Assembly (NCBI GenBank): GCA_041906885.1
Contig: JAYRII010000012.1
Location: 94,955-158,954, forward strand
Direction of reading: 5' to 3'
Length of the DNA stretch: 64,000 nt
Origin: Candidatus Saccharimonadia bacterium
GTDB taxonomy: Bacteria; Patescibacteriota; Saccharimonadia; CAILAD01; CAZGYV01
The notes under the pieces are model-generated. The model searched no databases. It had not been told where the DNA came from and saw nothing but the letters and a program-made list of their open reading frames with translations. Positions 16,487 through 31,580 of this stretch are shown here, one piece after another; position 1 is the stretch's first letter; each line of letters opens with the position of its first letter. The position numbers and the translations under genes were made by a program.

Positions 16487-17292
16487 GGGGCCGCAATGTA
16501 CGTAAGCCATCTCGAATAGCAACCGCACCGGTCTATCGCACCAGGTATACAGAGCCCAAAAAACCGATTCAAATTCGCAATATTGTGCGACCCATATTTT
16601 ATGTTTTTATTGTCAGCTTAGTCTTTTGGTGGATATTTTTGTCGGGATTTTTTACGGTCAAACAAATTGATGTAAAAGGGAATCGAACGGTCTCAGGTAG
16701 AGAAGTTGCGGAGCAATTAACAAATATTATGAATAGCTCGATATTGGGTAAAAATATCATTTTTATAAATACTAATAAACTGGCGGCCCAATTTGCAGAT
16801 AAGCATCCCCAGCTAAGTGGCATTAAGATTAAAAAGAAGTTCTTAAACAAGATCGAGATTAGTCTAACAGAACGACAGGCGTCTCTAATTTGGAAGACAG
16901 GCAATAACCAATTTGTTTTAAGCGAGGATGGTCGGGCATACAGTCAATGGAGCGGGGGGAGTACAAATCTACTGATCGTGACAGATGGTGCTAATCTGCC
17001 AGTTACAATTGGCCAACAGGTGGTACCAGCGAGTTTTATTGTTTTCACGCGCCAGCTGATTTCACGGCTGAACGAACAAAAAATTGCCTACAGCGGTATA
17101 TCTGTTCCTGAAACCACCAGCGAGGTATATATCACAACTAAAGATGGCTACATCTTAAAATTGGATACGACTAGATCGGTTGATGATCAGATAGCAGACC
17201 TAAAGGCAGTGATAGCATTACTGGCTAAACAAAAGAATAAGCCAAAAGAATATATCGATTTAAGGATATCAGGTAAAGTCTTCTATAAATAA
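16483..17292 (+). CDS. ftsQ: FtsQ/DivIB-like cell division protein (POTRA)
   Basis: TTG start overlapping murG stop; TM then VKxIxVxGN POTRA-like start. Confidence 0.65.
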   Translation: MRGRNVRKPSRIATAPVYRTRYTEPKKPIQIRNIVRPIFYVFIVSLVFWWIFLSGFFTVKQIDVKGNRTVSGREVAEQLTNIMNSSILGKNIIFINTNKLAAQFADKHPQLSGIKIKKKFLNKIEISLTERQASLIWKTGNNQFVLSEDGRAYSQWSGGSTNLLIVTDGANLPVTIGQQVVPASFIVFTRQLISRLNEQKIAYSGISVPETTSEVYITTKDGYILKLDTTRSVDDQIADLKAVIALLAKQKNKPKEYIDLRISGKVFYK

Positions 17293-17734
17293 GAACAATT
17301 TATTTAAAAAAATCATTTTGCACTACTTTTAAGTTCGGTATTTGTTTAACGGATAGTTTTAAACGGCGGAATCCTCTCGCGCTCAATAAAAAAAATGATG
17401 AGTTAGAGTGCCAAATAGGCGACAAAACTAAAAAATTTTATATAAATTAAAACATAAATTTATATAGCAAAACTTAATGTTATTTAATAGCACAAGCATG
17501 TTAATGCCTTTTAGTGGTGGTCTAATTTCATCGCAGGCATGCCTATGCTATAGATAGCTTATATCTGTCTATTACAGGAGTGTGTAGCGGCTTGAGTATT
17601 AACCATTTTGGTATATTTATACCTGCATGTGATAATAATACAGTGTCGCAAAATATACATTGTACGACGCTAACATCTATTATTTATCAAATGTGGCAAA
17701 AACACTACAGCACTATTACTTTTGCTTATACTCG

Positions 17735-20392
17735 CTATTTTTCTACACGTTCATGTGGCTTAGCTGGTTGTCTGGCTTTATGGTGTTTTCTTTTGTGTCC
17801 AGCATCATTTGGAGAAGATTTTTTCAGTTGCTGACTATAGATTTTAGGCTCAATTCCAGAAATGTTTGGTTTTTGTACAACTGTAGGGATGAGTGGTTGT
17901 TCTCCTAGCTCTACCTGATTATCATCAGATTTTGATTGTTCGGCCTTAAATCCAGACCATTTAGATATTTCTGCCTCCACCTCGGACTTAGTTTTACTAT
18001 AGTGGGATCTAGATGTTTGAACGATACTATCTGTTAAATCCCTATGAGGTGCTGGCATCGGTAAAGTTTTAGCTGAAAACGGGATAGATGTTTGGCCATC
18101 AATACTCATCGAGACATAGATATTTTGTATGTTGAGGTTGACCAAGTCATTAGACTCAAATGTCGGTTCAAAATATTTAGTTAGGAAGGTGGCATCGGCT
18201 GCACCAATCCTAAAGCTAACCATCGAGCCGACATTACCAAAGACAGCTTCTCTAACCTCTTCGGGCATTTGCCCGACGTATTGGTTGGCAACAGTCAGGA
18301 ATAGTCCATACTTCCTGGCCTCACTTAGGATGACAGCGAACGATTCGGTGGCGAAGTTCTGGAATTCATCGACGTAAAGGTAAAATGATCGTCTCTCATC
18401 AAAGCTGATATTAGCCCTACTCATGGCTGCAAGTTGAATCTTGGTAATGACTAAAGCACCCAAGATCGAAGCATTGTCCTCGCCCAGTCTGCCGCGAGAT
18501 AAGTCGACAATCAGGATTTTACCTTGATCCATGATCTGGCGGATATCAAAGCTTGATTTAACTTGGCCAAGTACATTTCTAATGAGAGGATTGGCTGTGA
18601 AAGCCCCTACCTTATTGAGGACTGGTGCAACCGCTTCTGAGGCGAATTTATCATTCCAGCTAGCAAACTCATTCACCCAAAAAGCTTTTACCACCGGGTC
18701 AGTTACACTTCCTACGACCTGCTTACGGTACCCCTTATCGGTCAGCATGCGGGTGATGCCGAGCATGGTTGCATCCGGTGTCTCTAGGAGTGCTAAGAGT
18801 GTAAAACGCAAAATGTGTTCTAAACGCGGACCCCATGAGTCGGCAAACATTTTCTTTAACACGCCGACGATCTCCGAAGCAATCGAAGCTCGCATATTGG
18901 GATCGCTGTTTTCCATCGGGTTAAATGATATCGGAAAGTCTAAATCAGACGGGTTGAAATATATCACATCGTCAACCCGATGTTCGGGTATATATTTCAT
19001 GACATCCTGAGCATAGTCACCGTGCGGATCAACCACCGCGAAGCCGTGATCATGGTATATGTCTGACAAGGTTAATAGCTGGAGTAAAAATGATTTACCA
19101 ACACCCGACTTACCGATAATGTAGAGATGCCGTTTGCGGTCTTCTCTTTTGATGCCAAACTTGACATTCCCCTGTCTAAATGTAGTCGTACCAATTAAAC
19201 TAATATCCTCCGCTCTGGTATTTTCGCCCGTCGGTAAATTCGTCGGCGGCTCCCCTACTTTAGTGGTCGTCCAGGCTATATTTGGCGTCTCAACTGAGAT
19301 ATGTGGTAGGTGCCAGAGGCTAGCTAACTCTTCAATATTGAGAACGAAACCAGGATCGTCGAAAAGCCTAGCCCGGTATTCATCCAAGCTGTCAGGTTTA
19401 TTGTCTATCCCCTTACCGATAAAACCATTCAGGTTGATGGTATTAAATTGTTTAAAACCTCCGACCAATGCTTGCAGACGTTGTTTGGCTACATTCCCAT
19501 CGGTACCAATATAGGTTGTTCGTATTTTGACCGCATAGCCTAGCTTCTGGGCCTTAGTTTCGATGGCGGTGTTGACGGTGGTTTGGCCGGTTGGCAGTTC
19601 TTTCTTGTCCTCCTTCTTCTTATCCTCCGGCTTGGCCGGGCCAACGAAGGCAGCTTTGGCGAGCATGCCGAGTAGTCTAAATGGCAAGATTAAAATTTTC
19701 TTTTCCCAATTATCAAATAGATTAGTTCGACCGCCATTTTTGATCGATTCGATATAGCTATGCGATCGAGCGTGCCAACTGTCATCGACTGGTCTAATTA
19801 ATATCTGTAGCCACATTTCCTCACTACCTTCTAGAGTGGCAAGAGCGGTCGTAATGCCTGCGAGAGGGTCTACCTCAAAAGTAGGAAATGTTCGAATTGG
19901 AAAAATTTCATCTTTCGAGAGAGCTATTTCAGTCGTATAACCTTCTCGATCATTAAGGTCTTGCTTGGCATAATCATCATCCATCTGATTGATCTGGACT
20001 GTTGGATATTGAGCATAAATTTGGCTCTCAACGTAGCCTTTGAGTGCTTTGGGTAGCCAAACATAAAAATTTATCAGATTTTTTTCAGCTGCAATCTCAA
20101 AGCTAATATGGTCTTGCAGACTACCTTCTGAGGTAATCTGACTCTTGGGTTTTAAAATATTGTGCAAACTGGCAAATAACTGCTCGGCTGAAAGCTCTTT
20201 TTTTTCATTGTCCTTTGGTACGACAATATGCAGTATAATATGCTCACTACTGGTGACGTAGCGGACGCGCCGCCTGTTTTGCCAAATTTGCCAAGCAAAA
20301 TAAGCTGCTACAAGTGTCCAGCCCCAATATTTAAAGAGTACTGTACCTATTAATGACAGAATTAGTCCTAGTACGTTTAGAATTATGTCCAT
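17735..20392 (-). CDS. VirD4/TraG-like (type IV coupling protein-like) membrane ATPase of the HerA/FtsK/VirB4 superfamily
   Basis: two N-terminal TM helices, Walker A YIIGKSGVGKS, Walker B YLYVDEFQNF, ARKYG motif; 885 aa. Confidence 0.6.
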   Translation of the reverse strand: MDIILNVLGLILSLIGTVLFKYWGWTLVAAYFAWQIWQNRRRVRYVTSSEHIILHIVVPKDNEKKELSAEQLFASLHNILKPKSQITSEGSLQDHISFEIAAEKNLINFYVWLPKALKGYVESQIYAQYPTVQINQMDDDYAKQDLNDREGYTTEIALSKDEIFPIRTFPTFEVDPLAGITTALATLEGSEEMWLQILIRPVDDSWHARSHSYIESIKNGGRTNLFDNWEKKILILPFRLLGMLAKAAFVGPAKPEDKKKEDKKELPTGQTTVNTAIETKAQKLGYAVKIRTTYIGTDGNVAKQRLQALVGGFKQFNTINLNGFIGKGIDNKPDSLDEYRARLFDDPGFVLNIEELASLWHLPHISVETPNIAWTTTKVGEPPTNLPTGENTRAEDISLIGTTTFRQGNVKFGIKREDRKRHLYIIGKSGVGKSFLLQLLTLSDIYHDHGFAVVDPHGDYAQDVMKYIPEHRVDDVIYFNPSDLDFPISFNPMENSDPNMRASIASEIVGVLKKMFADSWGPRLEHILRFTLLALLETPDATMLGITRMLTDKGYRKQVVGSVTDPVVKAFWVNEFASWNDKFASEAVAPVLNKVGAFTANPLIRNVLGQVKSSFDIRQIMDQGKILIVDLSRGRLGEDNASILGALVITKIQLAAMSRANISFDERRSFYLYVDEFQNFATESFAVILSEARKYGLFLTVANQYVGQMPEEVREAVFGNVGSMVSFRIGAADATFLTKYFEPTFESNDLVNLNIQNIYVSMSIDGQTSIPFSAKTLPMPAPHRDLTDSIVQTSRSHYSKTKSEVEAEISKWSGFKAEQSKSDDNQVELGEQPLIPTVVQKPNISGIEPKIYSQQLKKSSPNDAGHKRKHHKARQPAKPHERVEK

Positions 20393-20454
20393 ATTATAGT
20401 TGCTTTTTTGCCCTCTCTATTGTCTAGATCGATGCTACTTACTTAAGTCAAACC

Positions 20455-21486
20455 TTAGCTTTGTTTGAGCTGATAAGTTGCTTTACTGATGCGTTCGAAT
20501 TGAGGCTTTTCTTGTAGGTTAAGTGCGATGGTTGTGACTTTTACCTGACGACGAGCTAATACCCGACGAACGATTTCGTCCTTTGTGAGCGGAGATTCTT
20601 CTTTCAATATACTCTCTATAATATCAGCAACAGTGCCGGCTTGGTAGCCCCATTCTGCTAAGGCGTATATGCCGCGTCCGATTAGGACAAATCTTTTATC
20701 CTTAATTAGTTCATTGTGGACGGCTTGCGTGGTGACTTTTTTGGGATTTGCTTCAACTTGACTAATTTTCTTTGCAATTTGAGAAAAATGCATCGGTTTG
20801 TGAGATTTATTTAAGACCAAATAAACTTTATCTCGAATACTTTTTGGATTAACTTCAGGCCATTGGGCTAAGCCCCACATCGAGTCTAACTCAGAGATGA
20901 GATTAGAACTAATCGCAAGCTGCCTTAATGCAGTTGATTTGTGCGGACCATCGATTTTTTTGGCGAAATTGTCAAAGACATCGGGTTGTCCATAGGTCTT
21001 GATGGCTGTTATTAGTTTTTCATGCAAAAGAGCAACATCACTTGGATTATACATCTCGCCCAATACCACAATTGTGTCATGGTTGTCATTTCGATCGATT
21101 AGATTAAATCCGGGATCTAGCTTGATTAGGAAGCTTAATTTGGCCTTATTATCAGGGTAAATCTTAAGTTTATTAGACAAATCTTCAAATGTAATAATAC
21201 CACCTTCATCGGTCAGAACTTCAGTAATTTTTTGATTGAGCTGGTTATTAAAGGACTGCTCTTTTTGGATCCGACTCATAGCCGCTTTCTCGATTTGGCG
21301 AACGCGTTCTCGGGTGATACCAAGTTGAGTTCCAATTTGCTCTAGCGTATAAGAATTAGCAACATCAATACCATGTCGCTTAATTAGAATATCCCGATCT
21401 CGATCCTTCTTGAGGTAGTTCAAAGAATCTTGAATCAGGTCATCTAAGTTTTCTAGCTGTTGTATTTGAGTAGTATTTTGCTGCAT
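20455..21486 (-). CDS. DNA-binding protein: sigma70 region 4 HTH followed by HARE-HTH-like winged-helix domains
   Basis: YTLEQIGTQLGITRERVRQIEKAAM (sigma r4.2-like); later GRGIYALAEWGY (HARE-HTH signature). Confidence 0.5.
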   Translation of the reverse strand: MQQNTTQIQQLENLDDLIQDSLNYLKKDRDRDILIKRHGIDVANSYTLEQIGTQLGITRERVRQIEKAAMSRIQKEQSFNNQLNQKITEVLTDEGGIITFEDLSNKLKIYPDNKAKLSFLIKLDPGFNLIDRNDNHDTIVVLGEMYNPSDVALLHEKLITAIKTYGQPDVFDNFAKKIDGPHKSTALRQLAISSNLISELDSMWGLAQWPEVNPKSIRDKVYLVLNKSHKPMHFSQIAKKISQVEANPKKVTTQAVHNELIKDKRFVLIGRGIYALAEWGYQAGTVADIIESILKEESPLTKDEIVRRVLARRQVKVTTIALNLQEKPQFERISKATYQLKQS

Positions 21487-21583
21487 GAATATTGTTGGCC
21501 TAGGGCACTTTATGAGTAGAGTTATATACCGATAAATTATATCATCTAAGTGCTATTTGGTCAACAAATTCTGGCAGTATGAA

Positions 21584-23536
21584 TTAATGATTTTGTTGGT
21601 TAGGTTTTGTCCATGTTGCATAATCACAATCTGGATAACGACTACAACCGTAAAATTTACGACCCTTTTTGGTTTTTTTCTCAACCACTTCACCATCTTG
21701 ACATTTCGGACAGGCCAGACCAATAGATTTGACAATTGGCTTGGTATTTTTACATTCGGGCCAGCCAGAACAGGCCAAAAATTGACCAAATCTGCCAGAT
21801 TTTATGACCATTGGCTTACCACATAGCTCGCATTTTTCATCTGTCATAATGACTGGTATTTTAACGCGTTCGATAGAGTCTGTCTTTTCTTGGACTAATT
21901 TTTCCATAGGCGTGTAAAAATCTCTAACCACCGGTTGCCAGCTTTCTTTACCATCTGCGATATCGTCTAATTTATCCTCCATTTGGGCAGTAAATTCAGG
22001 CTCGGTCACAAATTCGAAGTTTTGACTCAATAAATCACTGACAATTATGCCGATTGATTGAGGAATCAGTCGCTTCTCTTCGCTAACGACATAGCCTCGA
22101 CTTTGAATGGTAGAAATTGTTGGGGCATAGGTGCTTGGTCGACCAACTCCCTCTGACTCAAGTTTTTTAACCAGGCTGGCTTCGGAGTAGCGAGCTGGTG
22201 GCTGGGTGAAATGTTGTTCTGTGCGAACAGACTCGAGGTTGAGAGATTCATTTTTGGTTAATTCTGGTAAAATTTGTGGCTCATTCTTTTTACTATTGCC
22301 CCAGACCTTCGTAAAGCCATCAAAAAGCACGATTCGACCGGTTGATCGCAAGGTATATTGCCCGGCTACTACATCGATGCCGTTTTGCTGGTAATGCGCC
22401 TCATTCATTTGTGATGCGACAGCTCTTTGCCATATTAGTCGGTAGAGCTTCAATTCATCACTCTTTAGGCTGCTCTCAAGCGACTGGGGGCTTTTGAAGA
22501 AGTCAGTTGGTCTAATGGCTTCATGGGCCTCTTGGGCACCTTTTGATTTCTTCTTATAAAATCGTGGCTTAGTTGGCAGATAGTTGTCGCCGTATTGTTT
22601 TTTGATAAGCTTTCTAACCTGTTCCATTGCAATATCACTAATATTGGTTGAGTCTGTTCGCATATAACTAATTAGGCCACCCTCATAGAGCTTCTGAGCT
22701 ATGCTCATTGTTCTGCGTGTGTCATAGCCGAGTCTGGAATACGCTGATTGTTGCAAGGTGGAAGTAATAAATGGTGGTAGCGGGCTTTTTCGGCTTTCCT
22801 TTGAATCTATCGATGAGACCACATAGCTGGCTTTTTTCAGATCAGCTTCAATGTCTTTAGCATCATTTTCAGTCCTTACGACCGCCTTTTTGTTGTCGAT
22901 TTTGGTTAGTTCGGCCGCAAAAACTTCGCTTTTAGCTGTTTTTAAGTCAGAAAAGATTTGCCAGTATTCTTCTGCTTTAAAAGCTTCTATTTCGCGTTCA
23001 CGATCGACGATAAATTTTAATGCCACTGATTGTACTCGTCCAGCGGACAGACCATATCTAATTTTTTTCCAAAGCACTGGTGACAGACTGTATCCGACCA
23101 GTCGGTCTAAGATTCGTCGGGCTTGCTGAGCGTCCACTAAGTTTTGGTTAAGCTTTCTTGGATGGGTAATCGCCGCCTTGATGGCTGACTCAGTAATTTC
23201 TGAGAAAGTGATTCGTTTGACTGTTTGCTCGGAAGTTGGCGGAACGGCCTGGATGATATGCCAAGCAATTGCTTCCCCTTCTCTGTCAAGGTCAGTGGCC
23301 AGATAAATGGTTTGGGCCTGGTGGATTTGTTTCTTGAGCTCATTAATTCTTTTGGCGCTACCACGCGGTATCATATATTCTGGCGTAAAATTATGATCGA
23401 CATCAATGCCGAGCTTGGACTTGGGTAAGTCGCGAACATGGCCAAAACTAGCCACCACTTGGTAGTCCTTACCAAGATAGCCTTCAATGGTGGCAGCCTT
23501 TGCGGGACTTTCTACTATTACAAGATTTTTAGACAT
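21584..23536 (-). CDS. topA: DNA topoisomerase I with C-terminal zinc ribbons
   Basis: Toprim start MSKNLVIVESPAKA, active-site region, C-terminal CxxC pairs. Confidence 0.9.
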   Translation of the reverse strand: MSKNLVIVESPAKAATIEGYLGKDYQVVASFGHVRDLPKSKLGIDVDHNFTPEYMIPRGSAKRINELKKQIHQAQTIYLATDLDREGEAIAWHIIQAVPPTSEQTVKRITFSEITESAIKAAITHPRKLNQNLVDAQQARRILDRLVGYSLSPVLWKKIRYGLSAGRVQSVALKFIVDREREIEAFKAEEYWQIFSDLKTAKSEVFAAELTKIDNKKAVVRTENDAKDIEADLKKASYVVSSIDSKESRKSPLPPFITSTLQQSAYSRLGYDTRRTMSIAQKLYEGGLISYMRTDSTNISDIAMEQVRKLIKKQYGDNYLPTKPRFYKKKSKGAQEAHEAIRPTDFFKSPQSLESSLKSDELKLYRLIWQRAVASQMNEAHYQQNGIDVVAGQYTLRSTGRIVLFDGFTKVWGNSKKNEPQILPELTKNESLNLESVRTEQHFTQPPARYSEASLVKKLESEGVGRPSTYAPTISTIQSRGYVVSEEKRLIPQSIGIIVSDLLSQNFEFVTEPEFTAQMEDKLDDIADGKESWQPVVRDFYTPMEKLVQEKTDSIERVKIPVIMTDEKCELCGKPMVIKSGRFGQFLACSGWPECKNTKPIVKSIGLACPKCQDGEVVEKKTKKGRKFYGCSRYPDCDYATWTKPNQQNH

Positions 23537-23655
23537 ATACTCCTAGTATGCTAATGGTTATGTTTGTTTAGCGCAAGTCATATATATTTGTTTTAAAAAA
23601 GACACATGGCGCGCAAAGTCAGACTTTAGCAATCTTTAGCTATTTTGTCAAAAAG

Positions 23656-24501
23656 CTATCTGATAATCCATGTGCCACCACCAATATTGCGGATCTTGCC
23701 TGTAATTTCCATCAGTGAAATCAGATGAGCAAACTGAGCTGCCTCCATGCCAGTTTGCTCGATGAGAGCTTGATTAGAGCTTACTCCACGATCAATTAAA
23801 CCAATGATAGTCTCCTCCTCAATAGAATCGGCTTTGATTGGCTTGGTGGTGAGCTTGGGGCTAACCAATCCGAGCTGGGTAAGGACATCAATACCACTCG
23901 TTACAGCGATCGCACCCATCTTAATTAGGTCATTTGGACCGCAGCTTCTGGGACTAAAAATATTACCAGGCACAGCCATAACCTGCCTATTTTCCTGCAA
24001 GGCAAAATTAGCAGTGATCAGCGAACCACTTTTACTCTCTGCCTCAGTTACAATTGTGGCTAGACTCATCCCGGCAATTATTCTATTGCGGGCAGGAAAA
24101 TGAGATTTAAATGGCTGCACACCAATGTCATATTCTGAGATGAGGCAGCCGCCACTAGCGACAATATTTTGAGCCAGAGGCTTATTGATTGAAGGATAGA
24201 TTGTATCCAACCCACATCCAAGTACAGCAATAGTCACGCCACCGGCATCGATGGCGGCCTGATGGGCAACCGCATCAATGCCAAGTGCTAGGCCGCTGAC
24301 AATTACCAGCCCAGCTTTTGCCAGGTCATGACTCAATCTATAGGTAGCTTGCTTGCCGTAATCGGACATCTTTCTGGTGCCAACGATTGCGACCATGGGT
24401 AAGTCAGGCAACTTCCCAACAATATGTAGCTCTTTCGGCGGCTGGGCAATTTCCGCTAAAAGCGATGGATATTGGTTGCTATTTTTACTAATACGTTTCA
24501 T
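23656..24501 (-). CDS. dprA: DNA processing protein DprA
   Basis: Rossmann-like VIVSGLALGIDAVAHQAA motif, 281 aa, adjacent to topA. Confidence 0.85.
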   Translation of the reverse strand: MKRISKNSNQYPSLLAEIAQPPKELHIVGKLPDLPMVAIVGTRKMSDYGKQATYRLSHDLAKAGLVIVSGLALGIDAVAHQAAIDAGGVTIAVLGCGLDTIYPSINKPLAQNIVASGGCLISEYDIGVQPFKSHFPARNRIIAGMSLATIVTEAESKSGSLITANFALQENRQVMAVPGNIFSPRSCGPNDLIKMGAIAVTSGIDVLTQLGLVSPKLTTKPIKADSIEEETIIGLIDRGVSSNQALIEQTGMEAAQFAHLISLMEITGKIRNIGGGTWIIR

Positions 24502-24619
24502 TGTTAGGTTCTTTTTTAGGTGGTCTTAGTGGCAAAATTGAAGACTTATTTATTCTTTTAATAAATGTAATAGCTTAAAAAGTATTGACAAATATTACAA
24601 CTAATGTTACTATACATAA

Positions 24620-24826
24620 GCCTTTTTTTGAAGGTGGAAATCTGTCTCGCGAGGTTTAACCTAAATCTCACCCTCCTTTAGGTTTACTCGAGGGGCAGAT
24701 TCCCCCCTTTAATGACCACGGTTTATAGAATATTTAAGAAACCGGCAAACTCCCGTATGGGTGGCATTAGAGGGTGTTTAAAAACAGACCAGCTAGACTA
24801 ACCAGGCTGGTCTGTTTCTATTTTGT
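24620..24826 (+). ncRNA. candidate structured small RNA of unknown class
   Basis: TTGACA(24585)-N17-TACTAT promoter; ~70-nt long imperfect hairpin (GGAAAUCUG...CAGAUUCC); 3' intrinsic terminator CAGACCAGC...GCUGGUCUG + U-run at 24784..24826; no ORF. Confidence 0.3.
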
Positions 24827-24862
24827 ACGGTATTACACCGATTTGCAAGCTAAACTGCAATC

Positions 24863-25429
24863 CTAATCAATCAATTGATATGAGGTGTGCTTGGGTTCTC
24901 CGTTAATCCCATCAATTATCTTCTCTGCTACCTGACTGCAGATAGTGTCTAAATGCTTCTTTTCAATATCAGTAAATTGACTTAGGACAAATTTTTCACT
25001 GGTGACTTTTGAGCTGAATTTATTGTGAATGCCAACCCGAAAGCGAATATAATCCTCTCCAATTGCTTGAGAGATTGATTTAATGCCATTATGGCCGGCC
25101 GAACCGCCTCCTTTACGAATCCGCATTTGACCAAATTCTAGGGCCAGTTCGTCGTGAACAATCCAGATATCTTCGGCAGATATCTTATAGAAATTTGCCA
25201 CTAGTCCGACGGCCTGGCCAGAGTTATTCATAAATGTTGATGGTTTGAAAAGGATTATTTTCTGGTTTGATTTACTAGTTTCTGTGATCTGGCCGATAAA
25301 TTTTGGACTGTTGGCAAACTTCAGTATAGCCAGCTCCGATGCCAGCCTATCCAAAATCAAATACCCAAGATTGTGACGCGTATTGATATACTCTTGACCT
25401 GGATTGCCCAGACCTACTATCAATTTCAT
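24863..25429 (-). CDS. pth: peptidyl-tRNA hydrolase
   Basis: MKLIVGLGNPG...RHNLG signature. Confidence 0.9.
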   Translation of the reverse strand: MKLIVGLGNPGQEYINTRHNLGYLILDRLASELAILKFANSPKFIGQITETSKSNQKIILFKPSTFMNNSGQAVGLVANFYKISAEDIWIVHDELALEFGQMRIRKGGGSAGHNGIKSISQAIGEDYIRFRVGIHNKFSSKVTSEKFVLSQFTDIEKKHLDTICSQVAEKIIDGINGEPKHTSYQLID

Positions 25430-25453
25430 AGTTGGCTTTGCTCGTCTACTAAA

Positions 25454-26791
25454 CTATTTATTCTTACATTCTATTATAATTGGAGTGCCGCTATATTCAT
25501 ACGCTTTGCGGAGCTGGTTTTCAATATAGCGCAAGTACGAAAAGTGAATTTGCTCCGGATAGCTGGAAAATAAACTAAAAATCGGCGGCTTGGTGCCCTT
25601 TTGAACAGCATATTTCAGCTTTGGTCGCTTGCCTTTTAAGCCGGCTGGGGGCTGTTTAGCAACTGCTTCTGCAATAATATTATTGAGTAACTTGGTAGGT
25701 ATTTGTGTTTGACGATTCAATTCGACTTGTGTAATTATATCCAGTAATTTATCGTTGTTTTGACCGGTTTTGGCTGATGAAAAAATTAATGGTGCCCACC
25801 ACACAAATTGATAGTTGGCCGTAATCAGTCTGGTCAGGCGAGCCATTGATTTATCATCCTTGTTATAAAATGCGTCCCACTTGCTAACCACTAGGATTAG
25901 GCCTTTGCCAGCTTCTTTGACTAGACCAGCAATTTTTTGATCTTGGCTGGTAAGCGGCTCATTAACATCTATTAAAAGCAGGCAAACGTCACTATCATTA
26001 ATAGCTTTTGATGTCCTAAGACTCGAAAAATACTCGATATCCCGACCTATTTTACCGGGTCGGCGCAGACCGGCCGTATCAGCAAATTCAATTATTTGTC
26101 CATTGTGTTCGACTGCACCATAATTAACGTCTCGAGTGGTGCCTGCAACCGGCCCAGTAATTGCTAAGCGCTGTCCAGACAAGCTATTGAGCAAGCTAGA
26201 TTTGCCGACATTCGGCCGGCCTAGAATGGCAACCTTGAGTTTAGTTAGATGCTCGATCTTTTGACCGGCTGGCAGATAATCAGTGATTTGGTCTAATAGG
26301 TCGCCCGAGCCAGTTCCAGAGATAGCAGCAATGGTTTGAATTTGTTTAATGCCAAGCTGAGAAAAATATTTAGCTGGCTGCAATTTTTTCGCTTGATCGG
26401 CTTTATTTACGGCTAATATACAAGGTTTTTTACTTTTTAGCGATTGACGAGCTAATCCGCGATCGTATTCGTTTAAAGTGGCCGTACCGTCAATGACTAA
26501 AACGATGACATCGGCTAGATCTAGGGCGTGATCTATGAGCCTGACCGCCTCTTTGATGAGAGGGTCGTTACTCTTATTAAGGCCGGCCGTGTCGATAAGC
26601 TCAAACTGCTTGTCACGCCATTTGACCGTAGTGTAAACCAAATCGCGAGTTGTATTGGCAATATCTGAGATGATTGCTTGCTTAGCACCTGCTAGACGAT
26701 TAAATAAGGTTGATTTACCAACATTAGGTTGGCCAATAATTACTACTTTGAGGGATTTTTGATTCATATTATTTCCAGGTGTGATTTGCAA
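25454..26791 (-). CDS. der: ribosome-biogenesis GTPase Der (EngA), two G domains + KH
   Basis: two P-loops GQPNVGKST and GRPNVGKSS. Confidence 0.9.
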   Translation of the reverse strand: MQITPGNNMNQKSLKVVIIGQPNVGKSTLFNRLAGAKQAIISDIANTTRDLVYTTVKWRDKQFELIDTAGLNKSNDPLIKEAVRLIDHALDLADVIVLVIDGTATLNEYDRGLARQSLKSKKPCILAVNKADQAKKLQPAKYFSQLGIKQIQTIAAISGTGSGDLLDQITDYLPAGQKIEHLTKLKVAILGRPNVGKSSLLNSLSGQRLAITGPVAGTTRDVNYGAVEHNGQIIEFADTAGLRRPGKIGRDIEYFSSLRTSKAINDSDVCLLLIDVNEPLTSQDQKIAGLVKEAGKGLILVVSKWDAFYNKDDKSMARLTRLITANYQFVWWAPLIFSSAKTGQNNDKLLDIITQVELNRQTQIPTKLLNNIIAEAVAKQPPAGLKGKRPKLKYAVQKGTKPPIFSLFSSYPEQIHFSYLRYIENQLRKAYEYSGTPIIIECKNK

Positions 26792-27701
26792 ACGCCCAGT
26801 CTAACATATTTTTACTCTCTTGAAAACGGTCTGGGCTGTTTAAAACTACAGCCAGAAGCTGATGATTATCCTTTTGAGCAAATGAAATCAGGGTTTGGCC
26901 AGCCTCGGTGGTAAAACCGGTTTTAATACCGTGGATGTAGTTATAACCGAGCAGTTTGTTTGTATTAGTTAGGACATATTCTTTGCCGTCTTTATTCTTG
27001 GCGGTATAGCTTGGTGTATCAACGATTTTTCTAAAATCATCATTTTGCATTAAGATGGTGGCAAGAGTGATTAGATCAGACGCGCTTGAATAGTGATTAT
27101 TTTCGTCGAGTCCAGTCGGGTTGACGAAATGAGTATTTTTCAGACCCCATAATTTGGCTTGATTATTCATTTTGGTGATAAATTTACCTCTTGAGCCAGT
27201 ATCCCAGGTGGCTAGGGATTCAGCCATATCATTTGCAGATGATATAAGCATGGCCCGCAAGGCTTCGTCCAAGCTAAATTTCTCACCGGCCTTTAATCCC
27301 ACCTGCTCGCCATCAGTCGGTAATGATATTACTTTGGGGATTGTGATAGTTTCATTTAATTGATGGCCATTTAGTATAACTAAGGCTGTAGCAATTTTTG
27401 TAATTGATGCAATTGGCATTTTTTCATCAGCTTTTTTTTGATATAGAAATTGAGCCGAGTCAAGATCATAAACAGCCGCTGCTTTTGCCGCCGCTTCGTA
27501 GCTGACGGCCGATTCATTCCGATATGGAAAAGCTTTATATGCTAAGCCCGGCTTGTTGGCCGGCTGTAGGCTGTTGTTCTGATTTGTTTGAATGACACGC
27601 TCAGCTATCTGCTTGTGCAAGCGGCTAAAAATATTGCCGTTTGGTAATAAAGCAGCCAGTAGAGTTAGTACGATGGCGTATTGACTGATCAGCTGATTCA
27701 T
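26769..27701 (-). CDS. D-alanyl-D-alanine carboxypeptidase (peptidase S11)
   Basis: SITK (SxxK), SAND (SxN), KTGFT (KTG) motifs; signal peptide. Confidence 0.8.
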   Translation of the reverse strand: MNQLISQYAIVLTLLAALLPNGNIFSRLHKQIAERVIQTNQNNSLQPANKPGLAYKAFPYRNESAVSYEAAAKAAAVYDLDSAQFLYQKKADEKMPIASITKIATALVILNGHQLNETITIPKVISLPTDGEQVGLKAGEKFSLDEALRAMLISSANDMAESLATWDTGSRGKFITKMNNQAKLWGLKNTHFVNPTGLDENNHYSSASDLITLATILMQNDDFRKIVDTPSYTAKNKDGKEYVLTNTNKLLGYNYIHGIKTGFTTEAGQTLISFAQKDNHQLLAVVLNSPDRFQESKNMLDWAFANHTWK

Positions 27702-28393
27702 GCTGGTTTTTCCATTTCAATAAACTTGTGCTTACCTATAGCTAAGGTGCCGATTTTATAGTTATCAATCCTGACTCGTTCAAGTTTAGTGATAGTGTGG
27801 TCAATTGCTTCAAAACTTCGCCTAATTTGTCGATTGCGGCCGGTAGTTAAGACAAGCCTGAGGGTATTTGAATTAATTTTTTTAACAAGTTTAAAATAAC
27901 TCATGCCATCATCTAGCTTGATTCCGCTCCTTAGCCTACTGATGTCATGTTGGCTTAATGGCGTGACGGTGGAGACAATATATTCTTTTTCTTTCGCACT
28001 AGACGGGTGGCTCATTTGCTGTACAAAATAGCCGTTAGAACTAAGAATCATCAGTCCCTGGCTATCTTTGTCTAGTCTACCAGCGCACTTAAGTCGTGAA
28101 AATTTTTTTGGTAGCAATTGGTAAATTGTCTCTTGGGATCCTTGGGCTTTGTGAGTACAAACGTAACCTTTTGGTTTATTAAAGACGATTGCTATATCAT
28201 TTTCCAGGCGACCGAGCTTGCCTTGGGCTTTAATGCTATCACTCTGAGACACTTTGGTCGTCAGTGCCGTGACTATTTGGCCGTTAATACTAACTTGCCC
28301 TTGCTTGATGAGTTCATCGGCCGATCTTCTGGAATTTGCCAGACTCAACTCAACCAGTCGCTTATTAAGCCTAATTAGGTTTGGCTGACTCAT
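27698..28393 (-). CDS. rluB: RsuA/RluB-family pseudouridine synthase with S4 domain
   Basis: GRLD catalytic motif region, N-terminal S4-like segment. Confidence 0.75.
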   Translation of the reverse strand: MSQPNLIRLNKRLVELSLANSRRSADELIKQGQVSINGQIVTALTTKVSQSDSIKAQGKLGRLENDIAIVFNKPKGYVCTHKAQGSQETIYQLLPKKFSRLKCAGRLDKDSQGLMILSSNGYFVQQMSHPSSAKEKEYIVSTVTPLSQHDISRLRSGIKLDDGMSYFKLVKKINSNTLRLVLTTGRNRQIRRSFEAIDHTITKLERVRIDNYKIGTLAIGKHKFIEMEKPA

Positions 28394-28875
28394 TGCAACT
28401 TCGGCAGCTGTTTAATTGATGCTAGACCGAGAGCAGTCAGTAACTTTCCAGTTGTCTTATAGACTATCTGTGTTTTACTGGCATTTTGAATTTCAATGAT
28501 TAGTTTGCGAGCTAATAGACCCTTGATGCTTTGATCACTCGAAACACCCCTAATTTGCTCTATTTGTGATTTAGAGACTGGCTGATTGTATGCAACAATG
28601 GCCAACACCTCAAGGGCGGCTTGAGACAATGTTGGTGCGGTTTTATGCTGAAATAATTGGACATCTTGAGCAAATCTACTAGATACTGCGAGCTGGTAGG
28701 ATGTAGTGTGCTCGATTAGCTCCAAACCGCTATCAGTTAAATATTTTTTTAATTTTTTCAGACAATCTCTGATATCAGATTCTCTCATTTTAGTATTTTT
28801 TTGCAAATCGCTAATATCCACAAAACCAGGCTGACTAAAGAGGATGGCTTGTAGTTTGGCTACGTCGTCAGGCAT
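28390..28875 (-). CDS. scpB: segregation and condensation protein B
   Basis: size and position immediately downstream of scpA-like gene; winged-helix pattern. Confidence 0.65.
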   Translation of the reverse strand: MPDDVAKLQAILFSQPGFVDISDLQKNTKMRESDIRDCLKKLKKYLTDSGLELIEHTTSYQLAVSSRFAQDVQLFQHKTAPTLSQAALEVLAIVAYNQPVSKSQIEQIRGVSSDQSIKGLLARKLIIEIQNASKTQIVYKTTGKLLTALGLASIKQLPKLQ

Positions 28876-29573
28876 TTGTTGGCTCTTAAAATAAACTGCT
28901 CGTACTTACCAGTACTTTGCTTGATGATCAAAATACGGCCAGACTTGTGTAGCTCCAAGATGGCTAAAAAATACAGTACAGCCTCATGGGTGTTTTGGGT
29001 GTTATTTATAACCTCGGTCATATCGCAAGTACCTGACTGCAGTAGCTTTAATTCAAGCTTTTTAATGACCTGGTCAATTCTAATCTTTTGCTCAATCATC
29101 TCCCACTGAACATGTGGTTGACGGTTGCGGACATCACTTAGGCACTTTTGGTAGGCTGAGCTTATTAAATCTACTGTTAAGTTGGTTGGTGTTAGGTCTT
29201 GATTGGTAGAGTTCTTTAGACGTGGCCTTGGAATAGCTGGATTTTTGGATAATATTGCAAATTCTCGAGCCATGTTGCGGAATATGCGATAGGTTTTAAG
29301 CTGCTCAGTAAGATCTAGGGCTTCATCTTCTTCGTCTAGCGTGTCCTTGTCTGACAAAAGAACTTGTGATTTGATCCTGACTAGCTTACTTGCAATCTCA
29401 ACAAACCAATTTAACTCTTCTGGCTCGAGGTCTAGCTGGCTCATCTGGGCTAAGTAATCGTTGGTTACTTTACTGATCGCAATATCGGTAATATCTAGTT
29501 GTTCGCGCTCTATAAAACGCAAAAGCAGCTCCAATGGTCCTTCAAAATTTGCTAATAATACTGTGTAGCTCAT
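28860..29573 (-). CDS. scpA: segregation and condensation protein A (kleisin)
   Basis: length ~237 aa, overlaps scpB start; kleisin-like N-terminus. Confidence 0.65.
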   Translation of the reverse strand: MSYTVLLANFEGPLELLLRFIEREQLDITDIAISKVTNDYLAQMSQLDLEPEELNWFVEIASKLVRIKSQVLLSDKDTLDEEDEALDLTEQLKTYRIFRNMAREFAILSKNPAIPRPRLKNSTNQDLTPTNLTVDLISSAYQKCLSDVRNRQPHVQWEMIEQKIRIDQVIKKLELKLLQSGTCDMTEVINNTQNTHEAVLYFLAILELHKSGRILIIKQSTGKYEQFILRANKCLTT

Positions 29574-29591
29574 ATTGCCCTCCAGGAGAAA

Positions 29592-31001: not shown

Positions 31002-31085
31002 TGGGTGTAATTATACCAGAGAAACTCATAAAATCAGAGTGTCGCTTGTAAGTTTATGTAAAAATATCTTACTAGTTGGTCGGAT

Positions 31086-31526: not shown

Positions 31527-31580
31527 TACACCTTCCTTGTTTTATGAATATTGTAATCTCAAATAGCCCAATGATGCAAG

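Follow-up and report, generated by a model that had tools for sequence, protein, structure and literature searches.

A conserved pair of genes for a sigma region 4/HARE-HTH protein and a coupling protein-like membrane ATPase in Patescibacteria

Introduction

In FtsK (gamma domain and KOPS), Streptomyces TraB (clt) and the TraM–TraD pair, a DNA-binding module directs a hexameric pump to DNA. Such modules may be winged-helix domains or other folds, and they work in cis or in trans. Among the ultra-small Patescibacteria, 5,713 orphan homologues of the coupling protein (T4CP) family were reported from 2,918 genomes, of which 148 lie near virB4 (PMC12102498). The portion of that report available to us (Quinonero-Coronel et al. 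2025) mentions neither a partner with sigma-70 region 4 and a HARE-HTH domain (hereafter sigHARE) nor a DUF8128/VirB4-NTD-like domain, and likewise neither split and fused forms nor a conserved consensus promoter.

Published Tn-seq of Southlakia epibionticum covers the orthologs of the four genes of the string (PMC10633639 Table S1). The orthologs of sigHARE (SEML1_0294) and topA (SEML1_0296) are essential, the former at all three time points; SEML1_0294 is also a core, Patescibacteria-enriched gene (PMC10633639). The orthologs of dprA (SEML1_0298) and of the ATPase (SEML1_0293) are non-essential, as is ComEC, with normalised reads for SEML1_0293 dropping from 5817 to 2940 and 1372. FtsK is a separate, essential gene (PMC10633639 Table S1), and the T4SS cluster is essential and lacks a recognisable coupling protein (PMC10633639). 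In this species, sigHARE is thus essential and the ATPase is dispensable in laboratory co-culture, a difference that requires sigHARE to do something independent of the ATPase.

Here, we describe a previously undescribed two-gene module of these ultra-small bacteria, consisting of sigHARE and a membrane ATPase.

Results

Two proposed units side by side

The window, a 64-kb stretch of a Saccharibacteria chromosome, carries dprA, topA, sigHARE and the ATPase gene on its minus strand (Table 1), and the four-gene string reported in the initial annotation is real in coordinates, strand and protein families. The dprA and topA products scored 245.9 bits against TIGR00732 (cutoff 191) and 810.9 bits against TIGR01051 (cutoff 456), respectively. 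Co-orientation of the four genes is by itself uninformative, because the minus-strand run in which they lie extends over at least 13 successive ORFs (17735–33302) and also includes genes for a histidine kinase, a response regulator, a pseudouridine synthase and an S11 peptidase, together with aspS, scpA, scpB, der and pth. When most of the window ORFs with 120 aa or more were scanned against Pfam, no T4SS, pilus or ComEC family was detected, in agreement with the annotated lack of VirB or channel genes nearby. The spacer beyond the ATPase gene held no cassette ORF, Rfam family, tRNA or terminator-like site.

Table 1 Features of the locus (window coordinates)
Feature	Coordinates	Strand	Basis or remark
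dprA, 281 aa	23656..24501	-	TIGR00732 + PF02481
topA, 650 aa, housekeeping type IA topoisomerase	21584..23536	-	TIGR01051
Near-consensus sigma-70 promoter, TTGACC-17-TGaTATAAT	21536..21564	-	topA/sigHARE spacer
sigHARE, 343 aa	20455..21486	-	Pfam, NCBIfam, AF2, Foldseek
Sigma region 4, sigHARE residues 14-76	21259..21447	-	phmmer, alignment
HARE-HTH winged helix, sigHARE residues 216-279	20650..20841	-	PF05066
ATPase, 885 aa, T4CP family	17735..20392	-	Pfam, NCBIfam, BLASTP, motifs
N-terminal hydrophobic anchor, ATPase residues 1-40	20273..20392	-	Sequence, hydropathy, AF2
DUF8128, ATPase residues ~45-395	19208..20260	-	PF26449, AF2, Foldseek
P-loop ATPase domain, residues ~400-790	18023..19195	-	TrwB_AAD_bind, DUF87, TraG-D_C, PDB TrwB
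Walker A of ATPase	19091-19114	-	
Walker B of ATPase	18353-18382	-	
Basic low-complexity C-terminal tail, ATPase residues ~800-885	17738..17995	-	Sequence
Spacer without genes, 442 nt, ATPase/ftsQ (convergent)	17293..17734	.	Marks unit end

The promoter in the topA/sigHARE spacer matches TTGACA-17-TATAAT at 11 of 12 positions, has an extended -10 element and is the best promoter-like site in 17200–25600. Sites scoring at least 11/12 within 160 nt upstream of sigHARE were present in 118 of 134 loci, compared with 6% of 462 other intergenic regions, and the excess persisted when loci were de-replicated at 60% identity (12 of 17 clusters); a perfect 12/12 match plus TG was found at loci L083 and L164–L169. 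Because this near-consensus promoter is conserved, sigHARE and the ATPase gene appear to form a transcription unit of their own, which would start at this site. The string is best explained as two separate units, dprA–topA and sigHARE–ATPase, the former being ordinary synteny that Saccharibacteria keep within a large housekeeping block (der, pth, dprA, topA and so on, then the convergent dcw cluster).

The conserved neighbour of the ATPase is sigHARE

We surveyed 80 species-level loci anchored on the ATPase. The gene directly upstream on the same strand was sigHARE in 51 of 73 loci (median gap ~40 nt), and reciprocally the ATPase gene lay downstream in 50 of 64 sigHARE-anchored loci. All six distant sigHARE homologues (L164–L169), situated in at least four different neighbourhoods, have a DUF8128 gene downstream, with an ATPase gene after it; these two are separate genes in Parcubacteria-group lineages and fused in the 885-aa protein of Saccharibacteria. 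The pairing has exceptions: the ATPase is missing from 13 of 64 sigHARE loci, and sigHARE from 22 of 73 ATPase loci, including Dojkabacteria and Peregrinibacteria contexts. No sigHARE–ATPase fusion was seen among the 8 longest representatives.

The linkage of topA and dprA is of another kind. Upstream of the ATPase, topA was present in 35 of 59 loci and dprA in 28 of 54, and topA preceded sigHARE in 36 of 39 Saccharibacteria-like loci; both were missing at loci with less than 45% ATPase identity, and neither lay within 7 kb of the cassette in any of six loci from Falkow-, Buchanan- and Parcubacteria. In S. epibionticum, the order is interrupted twice, by a hydrolase gene between topA and the sigHARE gene and by another gene between dprA and topA. 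Thus, dprA is a neighbour by lineage-specific synteny and lies outside the conserved cassette, as does topA beyond Saccharibacteria, and the constant neighbour of the ATPase across phylum-level divergence is sigHARE rather than a relaxase or DprA. The best explanation of these data is a conserved Patescibacteria-wide cassette of sigHARE, DUF8128 and a T4CP-family P-loop motor.

These data bear on the DNA uptake function that the initial annotation had drawn from the adjacency to dprA. A competence motor working with DprA would pull DNA across the membrane independently of a T4SS. It would be in keeping with the DNA translocation carried out by the T4CP/FtsK motor family, with the position of dprA in the window (~3.3 kb away, same strand) and upstream of sigHARE in 27 of 31 Saccharibacteria-like loci, and with the natural competence of Saccharibacteria; ComFA was not detected when the supplementary tables for S. 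epibionticum were searched by text. We nevertheless consider it very unlikely. Linkage of dprA to the ATPase gene is confined to Saccharibacteria and disappears at ATPase identity below 45% and in 6 of 6 Parcubacteria-group loci; even among the 28 linked loci, 8 have dprA on the opposite strand, and additional genes may intervene between dprA and the ATPase gene, as in S. epibionticum. A separate strong promoter precedes sigHARE, transformation of S. epibionticum is ComEC-dependent, and the ATPase is related to coupling proteins of the export type encoded in T4SS clusters (see below). Since the conserved partner is sigHARE and not DprA, the uptake idea is left without support. What had been named as contrary evidence, a VirB4 with partners encoded elsewhere and no conserved linkage to dprA, is largely what we found, except that the ATPase is T4CP-like and not a VirB4.

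An intact, membrane-tethered coupling protein relative

HMM classification, the check proposed earlier, assigned the ATPase to DUF87 (32 bits) and TrwB_AAD_bind (28 bits; residues 416–711, including the region between the Walker motifs), with a sub-threshold match to TraG-D_C. Matches to the NCBIfam TraD, VirD4-like and CedD models were at the domain level only, and the protein remained far under every threshold of the curated T4CP equivalogs (35 bits versus 366); the E value against PDB TrwB was 1.3e-5. The VirB4 models CagE_TrbE_VirB, AAA_10 and TIGR00929 gave no match. The previously quoted motifs are in place, namely Walker A (GKSGVGKS, 427–434), Walker B (YLYVDEFQNF, 671–680) and RKYG (693–696), and all three are invariant among 38 homologues.

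Of the two N-terminal transmembrane helices proposed before, the hydrophobic N-terminus was confirmed and the number of helices was not: there is one stretch of ~35 residues (3–37), within an anchor (residues 1–40) that is followed by NRRRVRY. A hydropathy scan marked segment 1–23 only, and the AF2 model predicts a single helix (2–48), so that the anchor may be either a hairpin or one long transmembrane helix. Split DUF8128 proteins have an equivalent hydrophobic stretch (25–58). At the other end, the C-terminal tail is variable and unconserved in the homologue alignment; split ATPases carry a CxxC...CxxC zinc ribbon (zf_Tbcl_2/TIGR04272) in its place.

Precomputed annotation places DUF8128 (PF26449) over the N-terminal part of the ATPase, and a literature search found no mention of this domain. 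When its AF2 model (pLDDT 67, pTM 0.63) was compared with the PDB by Foldseek, the best 14 matches were all TrwK/VirB4 chains (E 5e-5 to 4e-3), the next following at E > 0.03. The predicted fold resembles the VirB4 N-terminal domain, at TM scores of 0.32–0.38 for a medium-confidence model; we found no sequence-level support for this likeness. The ATPase domain itself aligned with F TraC over 320 columns in hhalign.

A tblastn search of plasmids with the ATPase matched 615 records. The BLASTP match to an 883-aa Bacillaceae plasmid protein (E 1e-55, 25% identity) covered ATPase residues 93–782, including DUF8128; this protein, annotated as a DUF87 domain-containing protein, is flanked by primase and Replic_Relax relaxase genes, with TcpE and an AAA_10 VirB4 downstream. 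A homologue on a Streptomyces replicon is encoded directly after PrgI/VirB3 and VirB4 and before an SLT + NlpC/P60 protein. As these full-length relatives lie beside relaxase or VirB3/VirB4 genes, we class the ATPase as a monoderm T4SS-type coupling protein. The Bacillaceae plasmid's own VirB4 was unrelated to the query (E 0.03). The ATPase is thus catalytically intact and tethered to the membrane, is related to the coupling proteins found in monoderm T4SS/relaxase clusters and has become detached from T4SS genes. The earlier description of a coupling protein-like DNA-translocase relative encoded apart from T4SS genes therefore stands, but its contrast with a conjugative T4SS does not: the full-length relatives are coupling proteins of such clusters, and Saccharibacteria encode a T4SS elsewhere, in a cluster of its own without a coupling protein. 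Homology naturally suggests a DNA-handling role.

From the same evidence, the ATPase could be simply the T4CP of the origin-near Patescibacterial T4SS, with sigHARE an unrelated essential transcription factor that shares the operon by chance. T4CP genes often lie apart from virB4, the S. epibionticum cluster has no T4CP of its own, the homology to T4CPs within T4SS/relaxase clusters is full-length, and sigHARE is essential whereas the ATPase is not. We regard this explanation as unlikely, though worth serious consideration. The sigHARE–ATPase adjacency survives phylum-level divergence, gene fission and fusion, and complete turnover of the neighbourhood, a persistence that is difficult to account for unless the two are functionally linked. 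Moreover, relaxases are nearly absent (109 in 103 genomes), and an obligatory role of the ATPase in the T4SS is disfavoured by the finding that only the latter is essential.

The −35 recognition helix of primary sigma factors is conserved in sigHARE

In sigHARE, sigma-70 region 4 (Sigma70_r4, 45 bits, residues 28–75) precedes four winged-helix domains, the third of which is HARE-HTH (PF05066, 36.2 bits, cutoff 25.9, residues 221–279). Foldseek comparison of the AF2 model (pLDDT 88.8) retrieved SigA region 4 chains (38% identity, rmsd 1.2 A) and tandem winged-helix arrays. By phmmer, residues 12–74 matched B. subtilis SigA 297–358 (E 1e-10), whose TRERIRQIE corresponds to the recognition helix T58-R-E-R-V-R-Q-I-E66 of sigHARE; T58, R59, E60, R61, V62, R63, Q64 and E66 are invariant among 42 homologues. 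As judged from its sequence, the helix with which primary sigma factors read −35 elements is intact. Since sigma regions 1–3 are absent, sigHARE cannot be a sigma factor, and since the acidic tail is absent, it is not RNAP delta (36.5 bits against TIGR04567, under the cutoff of 42).

The intact region 4, with its beta-flap and −35 determinants, and the HARE-HTH fold, that of the RNAP delta subunit, would also suit a T4SS-independent role in transcription or chromosome upkeep. Here, sigHARE would bind the RNAP beta-flap and/or −35 elements, and the motor would remodel or tether transcribed or promoter DNA, for example by removing RNAP or by arranging the nucleoid at the membrane. Both genes are part of the core and enriched in Patescibacteria, and they sit in housekeeping contexts; sigHARE adjoins topA in Saccharibacteria, and as few as 148 of the 5,713 orphan T4CP homologues are near virB4 (PMC12102498). 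Against this, a T4CP-family motor in transcription has no known precedent, the ATPase is dispensable, some lineages lost it and retained sigHARE, and there is a canonical FtsK to handle the chromosome. We hold such a role to be distinctly improbable.

PADLOC matches raised the further idea of a defence-like surveillance pair, in which a sigma-HTH/HARE sensor and a HerA/FtsK-type pump would intercept foreign DNA, by analogy with MzaA, DndH and HerA-containing systems. The ATPase domain matched mad8 (56 bits), HerA and DndH, and sigHARE region 4 matched MzaA and PglW, all at the domain level only. A homologous sigma-like HTH/WH module occurs in a 1026-aa Ruegeria plasmid protein that adjoins a PT-dependent restriction enzyme, and the literature describes HerA/FtsK domains captured with HTH domains in defence systems. 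However, the cassette encodes neither a nuclease nor any other effector, both of its genes are core genes that are conserved vertically and lie in housekeeping neighbourhoods instead of defence islands, and sigHARE is essential. A defence function is accordingly most improbable.

Discussion

We propose that sigHARE brings DNA to a T4CP motor anchored in the membrane and that the pair has a conditional role in DNA transfer or acquisition; we put the probability of this model as a whole at roughly 0.45, and it should be taken as tentative. In the model, sigHARE would be an abundant, sequence-reading DNA-binding protein, which may recognise TTGACA-like sites, its own promoter among them. Beside its own essential role, it would act as the DNA-targeting adaptor of the hexameric motor, which would pump or remodel sigHARE-bound DNA at the membrane and most plausibly hand the substrate to the T4SS encoded elsewhere, itself without a coupling protein. 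The function would be conditional, serving horizontal DNA transfer or acquisition and not growth. Gene linkage is what suggests the interaction of the two proteins.

The adaptor model parallels relaxosome proteins or the gamma domain in the FtsK/KOPS, TraB/clt and TraM–TraD systems; by analogy, sigHARE would direct the pump, but in this case the DNA would be read by a protein of its own, with sigma region 4 as its basis. Its conserved recognition helix likens sigHARE to region 4 of primary sigma factors, and its delta-type HARE-HTH fold to RNAP delta. MzaA-type and PT-associated proteins have the same sigma-HTH plus WH array, but, unlike the MzaA/Dnd-associated modules, sigHARE is stand-alone, essential, core and not part of a defence system.

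The ATPase resembles TrwB (R388), VirD4 and TraD as a membrane-anchored P-loop motor of the FtsK/HerA superfamily, and its Walker A, Walker B and RK(A/Y)G motifs align with theirs; the similarity is weak (E 1e-5), and the ATPase has ~350 extra residues (DUF8128) between anchor and motor. With VirB4/TrwK it shares a two-domain layout and, according to Foldseek, a similar N-terminal domain, but no VirB3, VirB6 or VirB8 gene adjoins it. The coupling proteins of Bacillaceae and Streptomyces (814–883 aa) are homologous over both DUF8128 and the motor, are distinct from the AAA_10 VirB4 of their own clusters and lie inside conjugation/T4SS clusters with relaxase or VirB3/VirB4 genes. The window ATPase, by contrast, is chromosomal, core, detached from T4SS genes and paired with sigHARE, and has the N-terminal hydrophobic anchor that the Bacillaceae plasmid forms lack. 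It belongs to the orphan VirD4-like T4CP homologues already reported in Patescibacteria, whose members are encoded far from virB4 (PMC12102498); one of them, SEML1_0293 of S. epibionticum, non-essential by Tn-seq, has the same Pfam content and neighbours.

Layout of the locus

The four minus-strand open reading frames of the string dprA–topA–sigHARE–ATPase lie exactly where the initial annotation had placed them; from this string it had suggested a DNA uptake or transfer function rather than a conjugative type IV secretion system (T4SS). Here, sigHARE denotes a protein with Sigma70_r4 and HARE-HTH domains, and ATPase the VirD4-like protein encoded downstream of it. The four genes are part of a co-oriented run of at least 13 genes (a histidine kinase, a response regulator, aspS, scpA, scpB, a pseudouridine synthase, an S11 peptidase, der, pth, dprA, topA, sigHARE and the ATPase), and the dcw cluster (mraZ to ftsQ) converges on this run. 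Co-orientation by itself is therefore uninformative. The names of homologues placed the window in Saccharibacteria. As had been stated, no VirB or channel genes are nearby: a Pfam search that covered most of the window's ORFs of 120 aa or longer turned up neither VirB4 nor VirB6, and no pilin, relaxase or ComEC gene. Between the ATPase gene and ftsQ, which converge, lies an AT-rich spacer in which we found no Rfam family, tRNA or terminator-like site.

Elsewhere in the window, several sizeable ORFs with little or no Pfam annotation sit amid cell-envelope and polysaccharide genes; a 760-aa product has a weak C-terminal DUF4367 match only, and products of 201, 480 and 360 aa have none. Another protein, with UPF0020/N6_N4_Mtase domains, adjoins xseA and an LPG-synthase-like membrane protein and may be a DNA or RNA methyltransferase.

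Table. Coordinates of features in the window and in comparison loci (L-numbers)
Feature	Sequence	Position	Strand	Size	Description
dprA	window	23656-24501	minus	281 aa	TIGR00732, 245.9 bits against a cutoff of 191.15 (equivalog threshold passed)
topA	window	21584-23536	minus	650 aa	TIGR01051, 810.9 bits against a cutoff of 456.4; Toprim, Topoisom_bac, Zn ribbons
Promoter-like site	window	21564-21536	minus		TTGACC-17-TGaTATAAT, best of the region, in the topA/sigHARE spacer; TATAAT at 21536-21541
sigHARE	window	20455-21486	minus	343 aa	Sigma70_r4, residues 28-75; HARE-HTH, residues 221-279
ATPase	window	17735-20392	minus	885 aa	DUF87, TrwB_AAD_bind, TraG-D_C sub-threshold
Hydrophobic segment	window	19643-19696	minus		ATPase residues 233-250
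Spacer	window	17293-17734		442 nt	AT-rich, gene-free
Poorly annotated ORF region	window	47165-49447	minus
Poorly annotated ORF region	window	43288-45332	plus
Poorly annotated ORF region	window	37488-38570	plus
Putative methyltransferase	window	61862-63040	plus	392 aa	UPF0020/N6_N4_Mtase
Split ATPase	L164	9766-11454			C-terminal zinc ribbon
Tandem ATPase genes	L066	1232-6528
Tandem ATPase genes	L070	1128-6163
Protein with sigHARE-like module	L180	5588-8668			Ruegeria plasmid pTHAF33_d
Protein with sigHARE-like module	L179	26-1732		568 aa	Abditibacteriota plasmid

Genes that travel with the ATPase

We anchored 80 species-representative loci on the ATPase and scored the window genes in them, taking as denominators the loci with enough upstream sequence. 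sigHARE was directly upstream of the ATPase on the same strand in 51/73 loci, with a median gap of about 40 nt, and this arrangement was kept down to 40% ATPase identity. Both topA (35/59) and dprA (28/54) were found upstream essentially only at 50% ATPase identity or more, topA occurring in a single locus below that, and the topA–sigHARE gaps ranged from 170 to 3,900 nt. Conversely, we anchored 80 metagenome loci on sigHARE, all of them Saccharibacteria-like; the ATPase was downstream in 50/64, topA upstream in 36/39 and dprA upstream in 27/31. Thirteen of the 64 loci (L094, L097, L112, L124, L134, L137, L141, L143, L144, L147, L148, L151 and L158) have no ATPase, and sigHARE then directly faces the convergent ftsQ. 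They keep dprA, topA, sigHARE and ftsQ wherever the contig reaches far enough; no ATPase remnants were found in them, the space holding mutually unrelated ORFs of 135–190 aa without a Pfam match. Evidently, the motor has been lost or relocated more than once.

From records of Falkowbacteria, Buchananbacteria and Parcubacteria, which NCBI assigns to a candidate phylum group other than Saccharimonadota, we also collected six distant homologues of sigHARE. In 6/6 of these loci (L164–L169), sigHARE is followed by a separate gene for DUF8128, the domain that forms the N-terminal half of the window ATPase, and then by a gene for a soluble TrwB-like ATPase. The split DUF8128 proteins are 435–569 aa long with an N-terminal hydrophobic stretch, and the split ATPases 533–653 aa. 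The surroundings of the six loci are of at least four unrelated kinds (secDF, tgt, DUF3048 and others), with neither topA nor dprA within 7 kb of the cassette (0/6). Since DUF8128 and the motor are separate genes elsewhere, the Saccharibacterial 885-aa ATPase is a two-gene fusion, which explains a subfamily of matches that starts at query residue ~395 with more than 50% identity. An apparent sigHARE–ATPase fusion (L015) proved to be an artefact of a masked N-run. We found no Rosetta-stone fusion of the two; the eight longest ATPase representatives have long tails or a second P-loop only, with no sigma or HARE domain.

In other lineages, for example Dojkabacteria and Peregrinibacteria, the ATPase occurs without sigHARE, in other contexts or as tandem paralogues. 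Four Dojkabacteria-type loci (L071, L073, L076 and L077) carry it in another conserved co-oriented gene string, without sigHARE and directly downstream of a gene for a ~400-aa protein with a C-terminal LytR_C domain, as identified in a Pfam scan of L071; this string is a second conserved context of the family. Two further loci, L066 and L070, hold the motor in duplicate: two tandem T4CP-like ATPase genes of ~815–950 aa whose stop and start codons overlap, again lacking an upstream sigHARE.

A conserved predicted promoter separates the cassette from dprA–topA

The promoter-like site of the window lies between topA and sigHARE; the 62-nt sigHARE/ATPase spacer holds just a ribosome-binding-like AGAGAGGG, and no intergenic terminator was found in the cassette region. 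We scored the 160 nt upstream of sigHARE in 134 loci and obtained at least 11/12 in 118 (88%) and a perfect 12/12 in 62 (46%), against a background of 6% and 0.9%, respectively, in 462 other intergenic upstream regions of the same loci. After de-replication at 60% identity, 12 of the 17 clusters still reached 11/12 and seven of them 12/12, and TTGACA-17-TGnTATAAT was present in L083 and in all six Parcubacteria-group loci. As predicted from sequence, the cassette of sigHARE, DUF8128 and motor has its own, very strong and conserved promoter and is not an extension of a dprA–topA operon.

The string is, then, two juxtaposed units: a dprA–topA synteny kept by Saccharibacteria and a Patescibacteria-wide sigHARE–DUF8128–T4CP cassette. 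The dprA–topA adjacency occurs also in Bacillota such as B. subtilis. A motor for DprA-coupled uptake, as the initial annotation had it, would draw on the frequent presence of dprA upstream in Saccharibacterial loci. This inference is not supported: dprA was found in 0/9 loci below 45% ATPase identity, it was missing from the Parcubacteria-group loci, it was inverted in 8/28 of the loci that have it, and an independent promoter precedes sigHARE. We regard such a motor as very improbable.

sigHARE combines sigma region 4 with winged helices

By phmmer, residues 12–74 of sigHARE matched residues 297–358 of B. subtilis SigA. In an AF2 model (pLDDT 88.8), residues 14–76 superposed on SigA region 4 with 38% identity and an rmsd of 1.2 Å over 61 residues, and the remainder formed four winged helices of the SelB/UFL1/Dcc1/RPC62 type, the third being HARE-HTH. 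The recognition helix reads TRERVRQIE (TRERIRQIE in SigA), and these residues were invariant in 42 homologues. In structures with −35 DNA, the recognition helix of sigma region 4 carries the −35-contacting residues.

The gene of this protein with an intact −35-recognition helix is itself preceded by a perfect or near-perfect TTGACA-17-TATAAT across phylum-level divergence. This suggests either that the protein regulates its own gene through the −35 element or that very high expression has been selected for.

The ATPase family belongs with coupling proteins of monoderm T4SSs

The Walker A, Walker B and RKYG motifs previously read in the ATPase were all found, as GKSGVGKS, VDEFQNF and RKYG, and were invariant in 38 homologues; its P-loop motifs (Walker A, Walker B and R-K-x-G) align to those of TrwB, as in nucleotide-binding domains of the FtsK/HerA superfamily. 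TrwB_AAD_bind, which bears on the all-alpha insertion between the Walker motifs, matched residues 416–711 with 28–30 bits (cutoff 20.5), and the coupling protein TrwB was the closest solved structure by sequence (E 1.3e-5). An exhaustive search (E up to 1e-3) matched 23,727 cluster representatives, and more than 4,900 close homologues share the architecture of PF26449 (DUF8128) followed by TrwB_AAD_bind and DUF87. None of the curated T4CP equivalogs reached its threshold, the matches being domain-level only (SXT_TraD 35.5 against 366, CD1115 VirD4-like 31 against 250, TOL_TraD 25.5 against 648). The VirB4 models CagE_TrbE_VirB, AAA_10 and TIGR00929 had no match at E up to 0.001 (AAA_10 only E 0.085). 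With single sequences on one side, hhalign of the whole ATPase alignment covered 320 columns of F TraC (E 6e-4) and 45 of F TraD (E 0.03), a difference that does not discriminate between VirB4 and T4CP.

Two other identities were rejected. Replacement of FtsK/SpoIIIE is contradicted by the lack of any FtsK_SpoIIIE, FtsK_alpha or FtsK_gamma match and by the separate canonical, essential FtsK of Southlakia epibionticum; a phage or mobile origin, by the yield of just five IMG/VR contigs, which match the ATPase domain only and lack sigHARE. The VirD4 genes mentioned in papers on rice-phyllosphere and G6 Saccharibacteria are unrelated.

No relaxase or mating-pair-formation genes were seen beside the ATPase in the scanned window ORFs or in related CPR loci. 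By contrast, its homologues on plasmids and in Streptomyces do adjoin relaxase and/or mating-pair-formation genes. Among annotated plasmids, 615 records carry full-length relatives, at ~25% identity. Plasmids of Shouchella and Niallia encode an 883/867-aa "DUF87 domain-containing protein" that aligns to ATPase residues 93–782 (E 1e-55), the DUF8128 region included. Its gene is flanked by those for a primase-C-terminal-domain protein and a Replic_Relax relaxase and lies upstream of TcpE and of an AAA_10 VirB4 that is unrelated to the window ATPase (E 0.03). On a Streptomyces replicon, the gene for an 814-aa homologue comes after PrgI (VirB3) and VirB4 and before an SLT+NlpC/P60 VirB1-like protein. 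Given these T4SS–relaxase clusters, we conclude that the ATPase family is the coupling protein of monoderm-type T4SSs, in agreement with the homology of the patescibacterial T4SS to monoderm conjugation machinery described in the pertinent passages of PMC12102498. The same passages place the S. epibionticum copy far from virB4, give it as non-essential and state that exaptation "cannot be ruled out"; the family and its orphan status were thus already known. Published passages on this orphan homologue count 5,713 copies in 2,918 Patescibacteria genomes and flag its role as an open question.

The ATPase might be read as a plain T4CP, with sigHARE as an unrelated co-transcribed regulator. The T4SS contexts of its relatives fit this reading; the retention of sigHARE as direct neighbour at low ATPase identity and in six of six distant loci speaks for a closer tie, and we consider the plain-T4CP reading rather unlikely.

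N-terminal half and C-terminal tail of the ATPase

Hydrophobic residues 3–37 followed by RRRVR form a predicted N-terminal membrane anchor, either a hairpin or one long helix, where two TM helices had been annotated. By sequence, DUF8128 gave no Pfam match to VirB4 or another family and no significant PDB match, and hhalign did not match it to the N-terminal domain of F TraC. We modelled residues 1–400 with AF2 (19 sequences; pLDDT 67, pTM 0.63), and in a Foldseek search of the PDB the top 14 matches to the model were all R388 TrwK/VirB4 chains (E 5e-5 to 4e-3, with TM only 0.32–0.38); the next best was an unrelated protein (E >0.03). A fold like that of the VirB4 N-terminal domain is thus a lead of moderate strength for DUF8128.

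The hydrophobic segment ILILPFRLLGMLAKAAFV (residues 233–250), with a lysine/glutamate-rich stretch after it, lies within a low-confidence DUF8128 loop (pLDDT <50 over 221–266) and could be a membrane-interacting or re-entrant element. At the other end, the split ATPases of L164–L169 carry a C-terminal CxxC-x17-CxxC treble-clef zinc ribbon (zf_Tbcl_2/TIGR04272), instead of which the fused Saccharibacterial ATPase has a basic low-complexity tail.

Published genetics in S. epibionticum

In the Tn-seq data of Wang et al. 2023 (PMC10633639 Table S1), the ATPase orthologue SEML1_0293 is non-essential at all three time points, its normalised reads declining from 5817 to 2940 and 1372, whereas the sigHARE orthologue SEML1_0294, auto-annotated "RpoS", is essential at all three, with 1–2 insertions against 24 in the input. 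Both are core and Patescibacteria-enriched. Of the upstream genes in that table, topA (SEML1_0296) is essential and dprA (SEML1_0298) non-essential; two non-essential genes are inserted, an alpha/beta hydrolase (SEML1_0295) between topA and sigHARE and a CDP-alcohol phosphatidyltransferase (SEML1_0297) between dprA and topA. The canonical FtsK (SEML1_0096) is essential at the later two time points and gives a growth defect at the first (PMC10633639). ComEC is non-essential, yet required for transformation. The T4SS (SEML1_0006–0019) is essential, and neither a coupling protein nor a relaxase can be recognised within its cluster.

The contrast between an essential T4SS and a non-essential ATPase gene bears on whether the two are coupled. 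A T4SS-independent role in the chromosome or in transcription is a further reading, which we hold to be distinctly unlikely. Also improbable, if a little less so, is a Patescibacteria-specific, T4SS-independent DNA-handling machine made of sigHARE and the DUF8128/T4CP motor. Here, sigHARE would be an essential and highly expressed protein whose −35-reading domain was taken over from the primary sigma factor; it would mark TTGACA-like DNA including its own promoter, and would recruit a domesticated conjugation motor at the membrane. If true, this would give nucleotide-auxotrophic epibionts a new route to export, import or partition DNA; alternatively, it could be a layer of global transcription control in which a sigma-4 decoy is coupled to a membrane ATPase.

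Discussion

We tentatively favour a joint model, with a probability of roughly 0.45, in which sigHARE would be an abundant reader of DNA that fulfils an essential role independently and also directs DNA to the membrane-anchored coupling-type motor. The motor would most plausibly serve a separately encoded, distant T4SS in a conditional function, for example DNA transfer or acquisition. Since both orthologues are present in the genetically tractable S. epibionticum, these hypotheses are directly testable.

Patescibacteria account for a large part of bacterial diversity, and no function is assigned to most of their "enriched" core genes, among the most widespread of which is the orphan coupling-protein homologue. 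Our analysis adds that its constant neighbour is an essential sigma-region-4/winged-helix protein, neither DprA nor a relaxase; that the cassette has three modules, with DUF8128 and motor fused or separate; that the promoter upstream of sigHARE is unusually near consensus; and that the full-length relatives in known biology are coupling proteins of monoderm conjugation systems. The literature searched held no description of the constant sigHARE partner, the split or fused DUF8128–motor genes, the conserved consensus promoter, the VirB4-NTD-like fold or the full-length kinship with monoderm T4SS coupling proteins. A role of the pair in moving DNA between epibiont and host would have a bearing on the means by which Patescibacteria obtain DNA and nucleotides; competition of sigHARE for −35 elements or the beta-flap would make it a global transcription factor of a new kind.

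Comparison with known systems

Unlike sigma factors of the sigma-70 family, sigHARE has no region 2: only Sigma70_r4 was found, followed in the AF2 model by winged helices. As regions 1–3 are missing, it is not a sigma factor. It differs also from RNAP delta (RpoE), scoring 36.5 bits with TIGR04567, below the cutoff of 42, with an internal HARE-HTH (216–279) and no acidic tail. MzaA and a Dnd-associated 1026-aa protein contain a sigma-HTH plus WH modules similar to those of sigHARE, a likeness from which a defence-like sensor and pump might be proposed. PADLOC matches (mad8, HerA, DndH, MzaA and PglW) were, however, domain-level only and the cassette has no effector, which leaves this proposal a very slim chance.

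Two such modules homologous to sigHARE, with sigma region 4 and winged helices, lie within larger proteins encoded on plasmids. The 1026-aa protein is encoded on Ruegeria plasmid pTHAF33_d; a dndCDE–cysteine desulfurase block lies on one side, separated from it by one gene, and a PT-dependent restriction enzyme directly adjoins it on the other. On an Abditibacteriota plasmid, the module is part of an "RpoD" followed by very large hypothetical proteins.

For the joint model, the nearest parallel lies in conjugative elements: by analogy, sigHARE would occupy the position that relaxosome proteins have beside T4CPs.
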